Of a DNA stretch of 51,741 nucleotides, positions 17,286 to 41,363 are shown one piece after another. The position numbers and the translations under genes were made by a program. Each line of letters begins with the position of its first letter. Positions within the stretch are counted from its first letter, which is position 1. The notes below the pieces were generated by a model. That model had not been told where the DNA came from and searched no databases. It saw only the letters and a list, made by a program, of their open reading frames with translations. This DNA comes from an uncultured Candidatus Saccharibacteria bacterium (GTDB lineage Bacteria > Patescibacteriota > Minisyncoccia > Phycocordibacterales > UBA9973): contig CAZKJE010000003.1 of assembly GCA_964553015.1 (NCBI GenBank), forward strand, positions 1 to 51,741, read 5' to 3'.

Positions 17286-18086
17286 ATGGAAATATCAAGC
17301 AAAGAAAAATCAAATTTAATGAAAGCGGCGGGCATGCTCGCGATCGTAGTCGCTATCTTCTTTTTAGTAAAAATAGTGGCCGAGGTGAAAGGCCTGCGCT
17401 TTATAGGCGGAGGCGTACCATCAGGCAATACCATTAGCTTTGACGGCAAAGGAGAAGTAACAGCAGCTCCCGATCTCGCAGTGGTAAATCTTACTTTGAG
17501 AAGTGAAGCCAAGGAAGCAAAAGAGGCGCAAAGTAAAGTTACTACGACAGAGAAAGCAGTACTAAGTTTCTTAGAAAAAAGCGGCATAGCCAAGAAAGAT
17601 ATAAAAACCGAGAGCTATAATTCTTATCCGAAGTATGATTACGGTACGCCTTGTTATGGAGGCTACGGCATGCCTTGCAGGCAGGAAGCGCCTAAAGTTA
17701 TCGGCTACGAAGTGTCTGAAAATATCTCTGTAAAAATTCGTGATCTCGCTAAGGCTGGTGAAATTGTATCTGCTGTAGGCGCTTTAGGGGTCACAGAAAT
17801 AAGCGGACCGAATTTCTCGATTGAGAAAGAAGATGAGCTCAAAGCGCAGGCTCGCAAGATAGCTATCGATGAGGCAAAGGCAAAAGCCGAAACGCTCGCA
17901 AATGATCTCGGCGTTCGCCTTGTACGAATCGTAAATTTTTCTGAAAACGGAAATTATCCTATGCTATATGCGGCTAAAAGTATGATGGCGGAAGACAGTG
18001 TTTCTTCTCCGGCACCATCTCCTGAACTGCCTACCGGAGAGACAAAGATAACCTCCAACGTCACAATAACTTACGAAATCAGGTAA
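17286..18086 (+). CDS. SIMPL (DUF541) domain protein
   Basis: GKGEVTAAPDLAVVNLTL...KDIKTESYNSYPKYDY pattern with an N-terminal TM helix. Confidence 0.7.
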   Translation: MEISSKEKSNLMKAAGMLAIVVAIFFLVKIVAEVKGLRFIGGGVPSGNTISFDGKGEVTAAPDLAVVNLTLRSEAKEAKEAQSKVTTTEKAVLSFLEKSGIAKKDIKTESYNSYPKYDYGTPCYGGYGMPCRQEAPKVIGYEVSENISVKIRDLAKAGEIVSAVGALGVTEISGPNFSIEKEDELKAQARKIAIDEAKAKAETLANDLGVRLVRIVNFSENGNYPMLYAAKSMMAEDSVSSPAPSPELPTGETKITSNVTITYEIR

Positions 18087-18088
18087 AA

Positions 18089-18166
18089 CCCCTCCCAGCC
18101 TCCCCTTGTCAGGGGAGGAAGAATTCAAAAGTCCCCTTGATAAGGGGGATTTAGGGGGTTGTATTT
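18089..18166 (+). repeat. REP-like double-hairpin intergenic element, copy A
   Basis: CCTCCCCT-tgtc-AGGGGAGG and CCCCTT-gat-AAGGGG hairpins, then TTAGGGGGTTGTATTT. Near-identical to 36908-36980. Confidence 0.75.
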
Positions 18167-18169
18167 TGT

Positions 18170-18198
18170 TTGACTATTTTGAGTAAAAAGAGTACTAT
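18170..18198 (+). promoter_or_regulatory. Promoter of the secE-nusG-rplK unit
   Basis: TTGACT-17 nt-TACTAT. Confidence 0.55.
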
Positions 18199-18204
18199 TA
18201 AAAG

Positions 18205-18225
18205 AGCCCTGCGAGGGGCTTTTTT
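18205..18225 (+). promoter_or_regulatory. Hairpin plus U-tract at the predicted +1 of the secE transcript
   Basis: AGCCCT-gcg-AGGGGCT followed by TTTTT, starting about 7 nt after the -10. Confidence 0.45.
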
Positions 18226-18253
18226 AAGAGGTTAAAAAGTTCATATAAAAATT

Positions 18254-25032: not shown

Positions 25033-25080
25033 TATAAAAATGAAGAAGTCCCGAGAGACCTCTTCGGTACTACGGGACTT
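25033..25080 (-). terminator. Intrinsic terminator, apparently bidirectional
   Basis: AAGTCCCG-N19-CGGGACTT, with CTTCATTTTTAT on the minus strand and GTTTTACTTC on the plus strand. Confidence 0.6.
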
Positions 25081-25104: not shown

Positions 25105-25308
25105 CTATGCCAGCCTTTTCCTCGCGCGCTGACGCATAAGAACGAACCTGAGACCACGAGGCGTTAGCTGTCGCAAATCCTCGATGAGGTCTGCGACGGA
25201 GAAACCTTCTCCTGCACCCCAGATGTCTTTTTTTTCCAGATTCGGCATTTTGATGAACTCCTCAATGAGTTCATCAGCTACTTCTCTGTCGGAACGTGGT
25301 TCGGTCAT
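25105..25308 (-). CDS. Small GC-rich hypothetical protein (67 aa; acidic N-terminus, basic C-terminus)
   Basis: SD GAGGAGGT lies 7 nt before the ATG. It has its own TTGACA-16-TATAAA promoter (about 25330-25357) and terminator. A sample line is 34/60 GC. Confidence 0.55.
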   Translation of the reverse strand: MTEPRSDREVADELIEEFIKMPNLEKKDIWGAGEGFSVADLIEDLRQLTPRGLRFVLMRQRARKRLA

Positions 25309-25395
25309 TACTGTTACCTCCTCTCTGTTTATTTATATATTTTAATGAAAAAATGTCAAGCTAATCGTAATAAAAAATCCCCTTATTGGGATTTT

Positions 25396-36063: not shown

Positions 36064-36903
36064 ATGAAAACATACAAACCGACAAGTAAATCCAGAAGAC
36101 AGATGACCAATGTGAACTACAGAGGAGTTTTGACGACGTCCACTCCGACCAAGTCTCTCACATATGGTTTTCGCCGCGCAGTCGGCAGGAACAGCGCCGG
36201 ACGCATCACTATGCGCCACAAGGGATCCGGCCACAAGCGCTTGTATCGAGACGTTGATTTTCTATATAACAAAAAAGATATTCCTGCGAAAATAAAAACT
36301 ATTGAGTACGACCCAAACAGAAGCGCCTTCATCGGGTTAGCTGTTTACAAAGACGGTGAGAAGCGATACGTGGTTATTCCAAAAACTGTAAAGACCGGAG
36401 ATTCTTTTATAGTTTCTGCGAAGGCTCCACTGTCTGCAGGGAACAGACTGCCTCTTAAAAATATTCCAGTCGGAACATTTGTGTATAACATAGAAATAAA
36501 GCCTATGGGCGGAGCAAAGATAGGCAGGAGCGCTGGCATATTTGCACAAGTTGTTGCCAACGCTGATGGATATACGAATTTGAAAATGCCTTCTACGGAA
36601 ATCAGAAAGATAAATGAAGAATGCTGGGCGTCTGTCGGCACCGTATCAAACGAAGAACACCATTTAGAAAATTATGGCAAGGCTGGACGCAGTCGCTGGA
36701 AAGGAATCCGCCCGACAGTTCGCGGTACAGCCATGAACCCTGTAGACCATCCATACGGAGGAGGTGAGGGCAGGCAGGGACGTGGAACCAAGAGGCCCAA
36801 AACAATGTGGGGCAAGGTTACCGGCGGAAGAAAAACTCGCGGTCCTAAGAAATACTCAAACGTCTTCATCGTTTCTCGACGCAAGACTGGAAAGAATAAA
36901 TAA
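36064..36903 (+). CDS. rplB: 50S ribosomal protein L2
   Basis: GRNSAGRITMRHKGSGHKRLYR and GTAMNPVDHPYGGGEGR motifs. Confidence 0.95.
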   Translation: MKTYKPTSKSRRQMTNVNYRGVLTTSTPTKSLTYGFRRAVGRNSAGRITMRHKGSGHKRLYRDVDFLYNKKDIPAKIKTIEYDPNRSAFIGLAVYKDGEKRYVVIPKTVKTGDSFIVSAKAPLSAGNRLPLKNIPVGTFVYNIEIKPMGGAKIGRSAGIFAQVVANADGYTNLKMPSTEIRKINEECWASVGTVSNEEHHLENYGKAGRSRWKGIRPTVRGTAMNPVDHPYGGGEGRQGRGTKRPKTMWGKVTGGRKTRGPKKYSNVFIVSRRKTGKNK

Positions 36904-36907
36904 GAAA

Positions 36908-36980
36908 CCCCTCCGACCTCCCCTCATCAGGGGGAGGTTTTTGATTTCCCCTGACAAGGGAGACTAAGGGGGTTGTATTT
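36908..36980 (+). repeat. REP-like double-hairpin intergenic element, copy B
   Basis: CCTCCCCT-catc-AGGGGGAGG and CCCCTGACAAGGG hairpins, then CTAAGGGGGTTGTATTT. It aligns with 18089-18166 over nearly its whole length. Confidence 0.75.
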
Positions 36981-37032
36981 ACTTTTCCACATCTTGACAT
37001 TGCATTTTAAAATATGTGTGGTACTATTAAAC

Positions 37033-37474
37033 CGGATGCCAAGAAAGGGGGTGAGTCAATGTCCAAGGGGCACAGAGAAGAACAGACACGACGCGACAAG
37101 AACGGGAAAACACGACCGAAGAACAAGTAACTAACGACACAACACGAAGAGAGTGAAGGGACGAAAGAACCATGAAAAATATCCAGGTTCCCCCAAACCA
37201 GAAAGTTGTTGTTAGAGTCGTACAACCCGTCATCGTCGCGCGCTCTGCCGAACACGGCTGGCAGAGAAAGACCGTTCTCGGTCGAATCTCTTCTCGATAG
37301 TCGTACATCGTCTCGGGACGGATAAGGGGACACAGTCCTCTAATCCTTCCTAACCCTTCCGCGCAGGAACGACTATTCGAGAACCATCCGTTCTCTAGTT
37401 TTTCCTCAAAGTCCTCCGTAGGTAGTATTGAGAAAGTTGGCGCTTGGTCTGGAAACTGAGCGCCTTTCTTTTTG
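37033..37474 (+). ncRNA. Candidate novel GC-rich transcript (structured RNA and/or small-ORF mRNA) between rplB and rpsS
   Basis: An extended -10 TGGTACTAT (37019-37027) lies upstream and an intrinsic terminator sits at the 3' end. GC is about 57% on a sample line. It has several local hairpins and no match by eye to RNase P, tmRNA, SRP or 6S core motifs. Confidence 0.35.
37439..37474 (+). terminator. Intrinsic terminator of the inserted transcript
   Basis: GGCGCT-N14-AGCGCC followed by TTTCTTTTTG. Confidence 0.65.
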
Positions 37475-37480
37475 CCTAAT

Positions 37481-37508
37481 TTGACATTTTTAGCCAATTT
37501 GCTATTAT
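37481..37508 (+). promoter_or_regulatory. Promoter of the rpsS-rplE unit
   Basis: TTGACA-16 nt-TATTAT with an extended -10 TGC. At +1 lies the hairpin AGCTC-gttag-GAGCT (37516-37530), then ATTTTTT and the ATG. Confidence 0.6.
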
Positions 37509-37537
37509 GAAATCAAGCTCGTTAGGAGCTATTTTTT

Positions 37538-37888
37538 ATGACAAGATCAATCAAAAAAGGACTAAATATAGACGAAAGGCTCTTAAAAAAGATAGAGGGC
37601 CTTAACCCGCTCCAAACCCCGATGGTGAAGACATGGAAGCGCGCTTGTATGATATCTCCGGAGATGCTTGGTTTTACTTTTGGCGTTTACAATGGAAAAA
37701 CGCACGTGGAAGTATTGGTTACCGAAGACATGGTAGGACACAGGCTCGGAGAATTTTCACCGACAAAGAAATTTATGAAACACGGAGGAAAAATGCAGAA
37801 AGAGCTTGAGATGAAAAAGAAAGAAGCAGAAATAGCCGCTGCGAAGGGAGCGACCGCTGCAGCAGACGATGCAAAGAAGGCCAAATAG
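37538..37888 (+). CDS. rpsS: 30S ribosomal protein S19 with a Lys/Ala/Glu-rich C-terminal extension
   Basis: SIKKG..., YNGKTHVEVLVTEDMVGHRLGEFSPT core plus a tail of about 25 aa. Confidence 0.95.
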   Translation: MTRSIKKGLNIDERLLKKIEGLNPLQTPMVKTWKRACMISPEMLGFTFGVYNGKTHVEVLVTEDMVGHRLGEFSPTKKFMKHGGKMQKELEMKKKEAEIAAAKGATAAADDAKKAK

Positions 37889-41215: not shown

Positions 41216-41275
41216 GAAACCAAGGGAATAGAGCTTTGATTAATCCGCTTTTCTCCTTTAGATTCAATCTTTTCG

Positions 41276-41306
41276 CCCCTGTTAAGGGGAGATTAAGAGG
41301 GGTTTT
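41276..41306 (+). repeat. REP-like element, partial copy C (second hairpin only)
   Basis: CCCCTGTTAAGGGG followed by AGATTAAGAGGGGTTTTA. Compare CCCCTTGATAAGGGGGATTTAGGGGGTTGTA in copy A. Confidence 0.55.
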
Positions 41307-41363
41307 AAAGAAAAAAAGTGAGATATTAACAAAACACTCCCGTTATTATTTAATATTTTTTAG

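Follow-up and report, generated by a model that had tools for sequence, protein, structure and literature searches.

The rplB–rpsS gap and its signals

The stretch of DNA analyzed here (hereafter, the window) is contig CAZKJE010000003.1 of assembly GCA_964553015.1, 51,741 nt long, from a relative of Candidatus Nomurabacteria (Paceibacteria, Candidate Phyla Radiation, CPR) whose rplB product is 92–95% identical to those of Nomurabacteria metagenome-assembled genomes. In this window, 634 bp separate rplB (36064–36903) from rpsS (37538–37888), two genes of the S10 operon. The S10-spc cluster is the most conserved bacterial gene array and the backbone of CPR phylogenomics. The gap is the sole large unassigned one across 51 kb. 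A sequence-only reading, made by a model from the bare letters, had located it correctly and proposed that it holds a novel structured RNA or a module of small open reading frames (ORFs). Our analysis tentatively favors the second proposal, in the form of a micro-gene cassette with its own transcription signals.

An assembly chimera is unlikely at this place, because Logan contig SRR12113420_325389, which may share a sample with the window, covers both junctions over 2272 bp with 100% identity. The G+C content rises to 47.0% in the gap and 50.4% in its core of ~440 nt (37030–37475), compared with 41.9% in the whole window, 40–47% in the flanking ribosomal-protein genes and 31–42% in true spacers. 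The G+C contrast drawn by the sequence-only reading thus stands only against true spacers and was overstated; its value of 37% for the neighboring genes was wrong. Its counts of 3 T at 37071–37170 and of 34 G+C in the 60 nt at 37201–37260 were reproduced. A window-wide repeat search found the core in a single copy.

The gap contains, on the + strand and in the right order, a promoter, a Shine–Dalgarno (SD) sequence, ORFs and terminators. The predicted promoter P1 (37000–37027, + strand) consists of a −35 element TTGCAT at 37000–37005, a 16-nt spacer and an extended −10 element TGG-TACTAT at 37019–37027 (TGGTACTAT). This −10 had been noted before, with the remark that the TTGACA at 36994–36999 lies too far upstream to serve as a −35. 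The remark can be dropped: since TTGCAT sits at the proper 16-nt distance, P1 matches the consensus of a standard promoter. P1-like promoters of the form TTGC[ATG]T-N16-TGnTAnAAT occupy the equivalent place in seven related loci (L002, L163, L152, L168, L082, L085 and L161; related loci are given as L with a number).

Downstream of P1, the SD sequence AAGGGGGTGA (37045–37054, + strand) lies 4 nt upstream of the ATG of ORF1 (37059–37130, + strand), which encodes the 23-aa peptide MSKGHREEQTRRDKNGKTRPKNK; ORF1 therefore has an SD at a suitable distance from its ATG and stays open for 23 codons. The predicted peptide is 39% Lys+Arg and contains no hydrophobic residue after the initial Met, and its DNA is only 4% T. 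The first 140 nt of the unit, including the ORF1 region, are unstructured (z +1.25 versus shuffles), as expected of a translation start. No other intergenic SD-led ORF was found between ribosomal-protein genes in the window. Beyond its TAA stop, the ORF1 frame remains hydrophilic and T-poor as far as a TGA at 37173–37175. ORF2 (37172–37300, + strand; 42 aa) is preceded, 11 nt upstream, by a weak SD, GAAGGGA, and its start codon is interlocked, as ATGA, with the TGA that ends the extended ORF1 frame. This arrangement suggests an ancestral ORF1 of ~38 codons that was translationally coupled to ORF2, and the layout resembles module 1 of L163, with two tandem ORFs and a long 3′ untranslated region (UTR). 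Both ORFs and the strong SD had been described accurately from the letters. A type I toxin–antitoxin system was considered and rejected, ORF1 having no hydrophobic residue and ORF2 no transmembrane-length hydrophobic run.

The 3′ UTR (37301–37438, + strand) is pyrimidine-richer and contains local hairpins and CCUCC-like motifs; three hairpins in the 3′ half and the direct repeat AGTCGTACA are present as previously reported. The segment 37300–37475, terminator included, folds with a z of −3.3. A terminator scan recovered the GGCGCT..AGCGCC structure with its T-run as an intrinsic terminator at 37439–37474 (+ strand), with a 10-bp stem holding 6 G-C pairs, followed by TTTCTTTTTG. Just beyond it, a separate promoter for rpsS, also anticipated by the sequence-only reading, lies at 37481–37508 (+ strand), where TTGACA-16-TATTAT with an upstream TG matches 11 of the 12 consensus positions and is conserved throughout the clade. 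By consensus matches, then, P1 upstream and the intrinsic terminator downstream bracket the core on the same strand, as in an independent sigma-70 unit.

The junction is occupied by other small units in relatives

To place the gap in context, we compared 168 related loci, drawn from 80 species-representative genomes, 80 metagenome contigs and 8 contigs reached through near-identical uS19 proteins. The rplB–rpsS distance of a few nucleotides expected of S10 operons is found in distant bacteria but not in the clade of the window. Among 48 loci with rplB identity below 62% (other CPR and ordinary bacteria), the median gap is 26 bp. Between 62 and 80% identity, the gap reaches up to 2.1 kb in 19 loci, and in 19 further loci rpsS lies more than 2.4 kb away. 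At 80% identity or more, all 37 of 37 loci have gaps of 69–1552 bp (median 507 bp), and none has a gap of 60 bp or less. In the 62–80% group, the junction is occupied by proC, sodA, ftsW/rodA, pyrE, pyrF, dgkA or a gene for a Bro-N protein. Since the gap is never short in the lineage of the window and ordinary genes fill it in the 62–80% group, this comparison indicates that the S10 operon is broken at rplB–rpsS in this lineage.

Some gaps, of 131–170 bp, are 'empty': besides a terminator and the conserved rpsS promoter they hold a conserved 5′ hairpin and nothing else. Filled gaps of the close clade carry between one and three units in tandem, all built alike: a P1-like promoter with a short 5′ UTR, an ORF behind a strong GGAGG-type SD, often a GC-rich tail, and a terminator. 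The cassette ORFs run from 19 to 100 codons, are T-poor and encode peptides very rich in Lys, Arg and Glu. When the count was restricted to ORFs that have a start codon and are preceded by a strong SD and an extended −10, 29 close-clade gaps yielded 10 units on the + strand and none on the − strand, versus 0.99 ± 1.0 in shuffles. In L007 and L011, the unit is reduced to a promoter, an SD, a Lys/Arg-rich ORF of 20–31 aa and a terminator, and because it holds nothing else the ORF is its sole payload. The architecture in relatives, where the same promoter/SD/terminator platform bears different small ORFs at this junction, thus supports the proposal of a small-ORF module and also the idea of an autonomous unit that is started and terminated by signals of its own.

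Several loci showed features of their own. A motif of ~110 nt (GGGTGYTCGG..AAAC..CGAGC..GCGGGA..CCCGC), forming two hairpins with some compensatory changes, is common to the 3′ UTRs of L163 (1910–2021), L152 (895–1002) and L168 (1195–1305), whose ORFs are unrelated; it was found neither in the window nor in other loci. A recurrent cassette 5′ UTR hairpin between the −10 and the SD, AAATGRAYC..CTGCTC...GAGCAG..RTTC, was seen in L161 (gap ~95–165 and ~425–500, duplicated), L090 (gap ~205–270) and L086 (gap ~85–135); the unit of the window has a shorter 5′ UTR without a hairpin of this type. Other cargo at the junction, namely Bro-N and housekeeping genes, was observed in L115, L008, L013, L016, L024, L030 and L108, and the gap of L093 (207–500) contains an ORF that by eye resembles GIY-YIG/UPF0213, after a duplicated rpsS promoter. 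Gene callers overlooked the SD-anchored small ORFs in the GC-rich, stop-poor cassettes; on L162–L165 and L168 (848–1132) they called spurious ORFs, either a 150-aa antisense frame or a wrong frame over the promoter.

Payloads appear to be exchanged on a conserved platform and are SD-led

An all-versus-all comparison of gap DNA and gap ORFs revealed no cross-lineage families; the exceptions were dgkA, in distant relatives, and copies within the same species. ORF2 had no match among 1.84 billion representative proteins, a kind of search for which ORF1 is too short, and an 86-aa cassette ORF from a relative had no homolog among 5.8 billion. Likewise, ORF1, ORF2, an antisense ORF of the gap and nine peptides of relatives were without match in Pfam, NCBIfam, PHROGs and PDB.

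The comparison of L163 with L152 shows how such turnover may come about. From the rplB terminator across P1 to the SD, the two loci share ~97% identity, and they do so again downstream, from the last ORF's stop codon across the rpsS promoter; the 0.8–1.2 kb in between are unrelated. Because homology breaks at the SD/start codon and at the stop codon, the exchanged unit is the coding payload. The alignments thus indicate that the expression platform is conserved and that the payload within it has been replaced rather than diverged.

The cassette ORFs also differ from host genes in how their translation appears to be initiated. In the window, 28 gene upstream regions, covering ribosomal-protein genes, tuf, fusA, secY and nusG, are A/T-rich and have no comparable SD. 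A 5-mer SD precedes 4 of 103 ribosomal-protein genes of the close clade versus 28 of 30 cassette ORFs, the latter set being partly picked by the presence of an SD. This pattern points to SD-independent initiation of core genes in the clade. G+C content at third codon positions (GC3) is 0.64 in cassette ORFs versus 0.42 in the host, and several ORFs reach 0.81–0.88 with a second-position G+C (GC2) of ~0.5 and clear codon periodicity. Codon choice follows the same trend, with AAG at 73% versus 42%, GGG at 44% versus 9% and CGG at 25% versus 3%. An anti-SD motif is reportedly absent from about half of Parcubacteria 16S genes, in a group overlapping the one without uL1 (PMC9297842). The window, judged by gene order only, appears to encode uL1; it contains no 16S gene.

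A second unit of the same design lies elsewhere in the window (25105–25308, − strand), downstream of rpmB (bL28). It encodes a 67-aa ORF (MTEPRSDREVADELIEEF...RARKRLA), with a REP-like (repetitive extragenic palindrome-like) terminator hairpin, a TTGACA-N17-TATAAA promoter and the SD GAGGAGGT (25309–25360), and a terminator at ~25040–25075. The only match of this ORF among 5.8 billion proteins was itself. We also observed that the C-terminus of uS19 (37790–37885) carries an Ala/Lys-rich extension of ~25 aa, which matches the Parcubacteria-specific extension described in PMC9297842.

The searches give no support for a conserved structured RNA

The headline of the sequence-only reading was a novel structured RNA, and the sequence checks it proposed gave no ground for one. 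At the gathering threshold, Rfam returned only tRNAs in the whole window. At E ≤ 10 across 36700–37700 it returned nothing but miRNA-like hairpin noise on the REP-like element, at no more than 24 bits versus cut-offs of 72–84, so that no family was found in the gap, be it RNase P, transfer-messenger RNA, signal recognition particle RNA, 6S RNA, a riboswitch or a ribosomal-protein leader. No known family appeared in the loci of 20 relatives either. Searches of the 168 loci with blastn (word size 7), nhmmer and tblastx turned up no homolog of the core, not even in L082, the closest relative (rplB 95%); the parts of the gap that do have homologs there are the REP-like terminator, P1 and the final ~60 nt with the rpsS promoter and leader. 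Searches of phages and plasmids and exact-pattern scans of IMG/VR viral contigs gave no match either. With no homolog there is no covariation to measure in the core, and the sequence part of the refuting condition named by the sequence-only reading, neither homologs nor helices backed by covariation, holds as far as sequence data go. A k-mer search of 45 related gaps found only promoter and terminator motifs in common and none shared by the payloads.

Folding gave a moderate signal. The + strand folds with a z of −3.2 versus shuffles, compared with −0.9 to −1.5 for coding controls (n = 4) and −1.8 for the antisense strand, and the terminator contributes to this value. Three further candidates were set aside. 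Sequestration of the SD by a 3′ anti-SD mimic (CCUCC, ~360 nt downstream) is predicted in the window but was rejected as a selected feature because, in ten modules, the pairing does not exceed that with shuffled 3′ UTRs. A weak tblastx similarity to rpsC (34% over 35 aa, interrupted by a stop codon) was dismissed as chance; it recurred because rpsC is conserved across loci. Finally, the A-rich, T-poor stretch was considered as the template repeat of a diversity-generating retroelement, for which a window-wide repeat search showed no variable-repeat copy, reverse transcriptase not having been searched for.

REP-like elements and the rpsS leader

Upstream of P1, a REP-like double hairpin spans 36906–36980 (+ strand), close to the 36908–36980 given by the sequence-only reading; its two hairpins are enclosed by an outer stem (AACCCCT...AGGGGGTT). 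The first of them (36915–36939), followed by TTTTTGATTT, scores as an intrinsic terminator in the terminator scan and is the putative terminator of rplB. The element is repeated in the window at 18084–18171 and 41263–41307, and copies also occur in the gaps of L004 and L090; the hairpin motif gave 8 matches versus 0.35 expected. Members of the family share one layout, in either orientation: AACCCCT, two TCCCCT-N4-AGGGG hairpins, then AGGGGGTT. They occur at operon breaks, namely ahead of secE-nusG, between rplB and rpsS and between rplE and rpsN, with promoters downstream. The core as a whole was rejected as a REP or miniature inverted-repeat transposable element, since it is single-copy in the window and only the 36906–36980 element is multi-copy.

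At the other end of the gap, the final ~60 nt, with the rpsS promoter and leader, match ~30 loci by blastn. The predicted rpsS mRNA begins with a 5′-terminal hairpin, AGCTC-GTTAG-GAGCT with a U-run (37516–37537, + strand, within 37509–37537). A hairpin of the general form (A)AGCTC-loop-GAGCT(T) with a U-run is conserved in ~40 related loci and begins 6–8 nt past the −10. Among 29 distinct sequences, 2 of its 6 predicted pairs show compensatory changes (AU to GC), affecting 5 loci; the stems differ in more distant relatives (CAGC/GCTG). This hairpin could be an mRNA-stabilizing stem-loop or an unrecognized ribosomal-protein leader or attenuator. The upstream region of secE (18172–18226) has the same layout, a TTGACT-N17-TACTAT promoter followed 6 nt on by the terminator-like hairpin AGCCCTGCGAGGGGCTTTTTT and U-run.

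Interpretation of the insert

Taken together, these results led us to favor, with a probability of about 0.5, the interpretation that the insert is an independently transcribed, lineage-specific orphan micro-gene cassette, sitting in a clade-specific break of the S10 operon that acts as a replacement hotspot. In the sequence, rplB ends in the repeated terminator element, and P1, a promoter conserved among relatives, comes next. About 25 nt further on lie a near-perfect SD and the 23-codon ORF1, for a polycationic, fully hydrophilic peptide, and then the 42-codon ORF2, whose start forms an ATGA with the end of the ORF1 frame as read beyond its TAA. A structured 3′ UTR of ~140 nt and a strong terminator close the unit, after which rpsS has a conserved promoter and 5′ hairpin to itself, from which it would be transcribed anew. 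In this model, the product would be one or two peptides, not an RNA, and the payload would have arrived by replacing what lay between the conserved platform sequences, probably by homologous recombination, either in the conserved flanks (promoter/SD on one side, terminator/rpsS promoter on the other) or within the rplB and rpsS genes themselves. We infer a foreign, or at least atypical, origin because the payload is GC3-rich and SD-led in an SD-less genome. The peptide would most plausibly act through charge, by binding RNA or ribosomes, and an activity based on composition would tolerate rapid turnover of the payload. Since ORF1 appears cut by its TAA, the present copy may be partly decayed.

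A number of observations weigh against this interpretation. No homolog of ORF1 or ORF2 was found in the searches made, and purifying selection is thus not demonstrable. ORF1 has only 23 codons, and random ORFs read from a fixed start in GC-rich, T-poor DNA would resemble it in length and in Lys/Arg content. The T-poor composition extends 40 nt past the ORF1 stop, which suggests truncation or a constraint at the nucleotide level, and codon periodicity is weak within the insert of the window. The set of cassette ORFs behind the SD and codon statistics was partly chosen by the presence of an SD. Finally, the SD would not act if the lineage is among the approximately half of Parcubacteria that have no 16S anti-SD (PMC9297842).

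A rival reading takes the insert as non-functional filler: what is left of a cassette or of foreign DNA, decaying or neutral, and trapped between terminator and promoter at an operon break permissive to recombination, possibly transcribed but with no selected product. The insert is a complete orphan in all searches, ORF1 looks truncated, its hydrophilic, T-poor frame running through the TAA to the ATGA, and its periodicity is weak; moreover, payload turnover is extreme, and the 'empty' gaps of 131–170 bp in relatives show that a payload is dispensable. Neutral DNA, however, should drift toward the A/T-rich composition of the spacers (31–42% G+C), yet the core has 50% G+C; promoter, near-perfect SD, start codon and strong terminator are all intact, and CPR genomes are compact, with no other large unassigned gap across 51 kb. 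We consider filler doubtful, if the most credible of the alternatives. That the ~440-nt transcript acts as a non-coding structured RNA, with SD-like and CCUCC-like segments forming helices and the ORFs incidental, seems improbable to us. Folding of the + strand (z −3.2) exceeds that of shuffles, coding controls and antisense; GGGGGUGAG at 37047–37055 is predicted to pair with 37405–37417; T-avoidance continues past ORF1; and the G+C content is above that of other spacers. Yet the terminator accounts for part of the z, the 5′ 140 nt are unstructured, and the SD pairs with its 3′ UTR no more strongly than with shuffled ones in 10 modules. Neither the gap nor the loci of 20 relatives holds an Rfam family, the absence of homologs leaves no covariation, 45 gap payloads have no common motif, and the minimal units of L007 and L011 leave no space for an RNA besides ORF and terminator.

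The two remaining explanations have far less to recommend them. Regulation of the downstream rpsS operon by a leader peptide or attenuator is prompted by the presence of a short Lys/Arg-rich ORF upstream of a terminator, directly 5′ of ribosomal-protein genes, but this model fails because a strong, clade-conserved promoter intervenes between terminator and rpsS and because 310 nt separate the ORF1 stop from the terminator; in addition, payloads are unrelated in species with near-identical rpsS leaders. It is accordingly very improbable. Hardly credible at all is a gene for a 156-aa protein on the minus strand (37027–37497), although this is the longest ORF in the gap and similar antisense ORFs were called in the gaps of relatives. 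The frame has a TTG start inside the rpsS promoter without an SD, runs across the terminator and promoter elements of the + strand, matches nothing in Pfam and was not called on the Logan contig; it is open because a T-poor + strand gives its antisense few stop codons.

The cassette interpretation also admits a bolder form, which we regard as unlikely, in which Nomurabacteria-like Paceibacteria keep a dedicated slot for micro-genes between rplB and rpsS. A conserved promoter/5′ UTR/SD/terminator platform would there take up unrelated, GC3-rich ORFs by recombination, in genomes whose own genes start without an SD, and the swapped polycationic peptides would be fast-evolving effectors that bind ribosomes or RNA. 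If so, these peptides, including the 23-mer with its likeness to the small ribosomal protein Thx, would serve, for example, in conflict with hosts or phages and would not be junk. The insert of the window itself is of modest interest, as an orphan cassette and not a new RNA family; the pattern at the level of the locus is more interesting. We found no relevant literature on the rplB–rpsS junction or on CPR micro-genes, and the combination of a conserved platform with swapped, GC3-rich, SD-led micro-genes in an SD-less host is, as far as literature searches show, undescribed. It would mean that in one clade a junction inside the S10-spc cluster has turned hypervariable, that micro-genes are replaced wholesale there between near-identical genomes, and that they use an SD signal that host core genes do not use. 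The locus would then serve to study the birth, acquisition and turnover of micro-proteins in uncultivated episymbionts and SD-dependent versus SD-independent initiation in CPR, and to test annotation pipelines, which called either nothing or spurious antisense ORFs.

Comparison with known systems

In its length (23–27 aa), its charge and its ribosomal-operon context, ORF1 is reminiscent of the tiny polycationic ribosomal proteins bTHX/Thx, bL37 and bS22. Its alignment with Thermus Thx gave 13 identities (z ~5 versus composition-preserving shuffles) and a common C-terminal G-K-x-R-P-K-N-K, and the G-x-x-R-P-[KR] tail reads GKTRPKNK in ORF1, GKYRPRKK in Thermus and GNARPKNK in spinach bTHXc. A hidden Markov model (HMM) built from four Thx sequences hit only the last 8 residues of ORF1 (6.5 bits, p ~0.008); Pfam and NCBIfam at E ≤ 10 and a phmmer search of PDB gave no hit, and none of 19 peptides from relatives shows the likeness. 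ORF1 differs from bTHX in reading KGH instead of KGD and in the deletion of the GK[RI][FW]..[FY]G core. With the curated HMMs silent and both the GD motif and the aromatic core missing, we did not file ORF1 as bTHX and keep the likeness as a weak lead only; bL37 was rejected (z −0.6 versus shuffles, with no alignment beyond composition). Nor do the unrelated peptides of relatives fit a structural ribosomal protein.

At the level of DNA, the hairpin at 36906–36980 resembles the intergenic palindromes of the REP and bacterial interspersed mosaic element (BIME) type in being repeated at operon breaks and in doubling as a terminator. The difference is that only this element of ~70 nt is repeated, the ~440-nt core being single-copy. 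The cassettes also recall those of integrons, which are small, mostly orphan ORFs in tandem, variable between close relatives and placed after a conserved expression signal. Here, however, every unit is equipped with a promoter and a terminator of its own; no attC-like repeat is common to the units of 45 gaps, in which only promoter and terminator k-mers recur, and no integron integrase was seen in the flanks examined, the 2.5 kb on either side consisting of ribosomal-protein genes.

Strain-variable genomic islets, hotspots of horizontal gene transfer that bear orphan small genes between conserved core genes, offer a further parallel. Like them, the rplB–rpsS junction is a fixed site between conserved genes whose content differs while its flanks remain ~97% identical (L163/L152), its cargo has atypical G+C content and codon usage, and ordinary genes occupy the junction in more distant relatives. 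Unlike in islets, there is no integrase, transposase or tRNA at the site, the hotspot of the window lies inside the S10 operon and the cargo consists of micro-genes of 19–100 codons; moreover, the promoter/SD/terminator platform is kept and only the coding payload is swapped.

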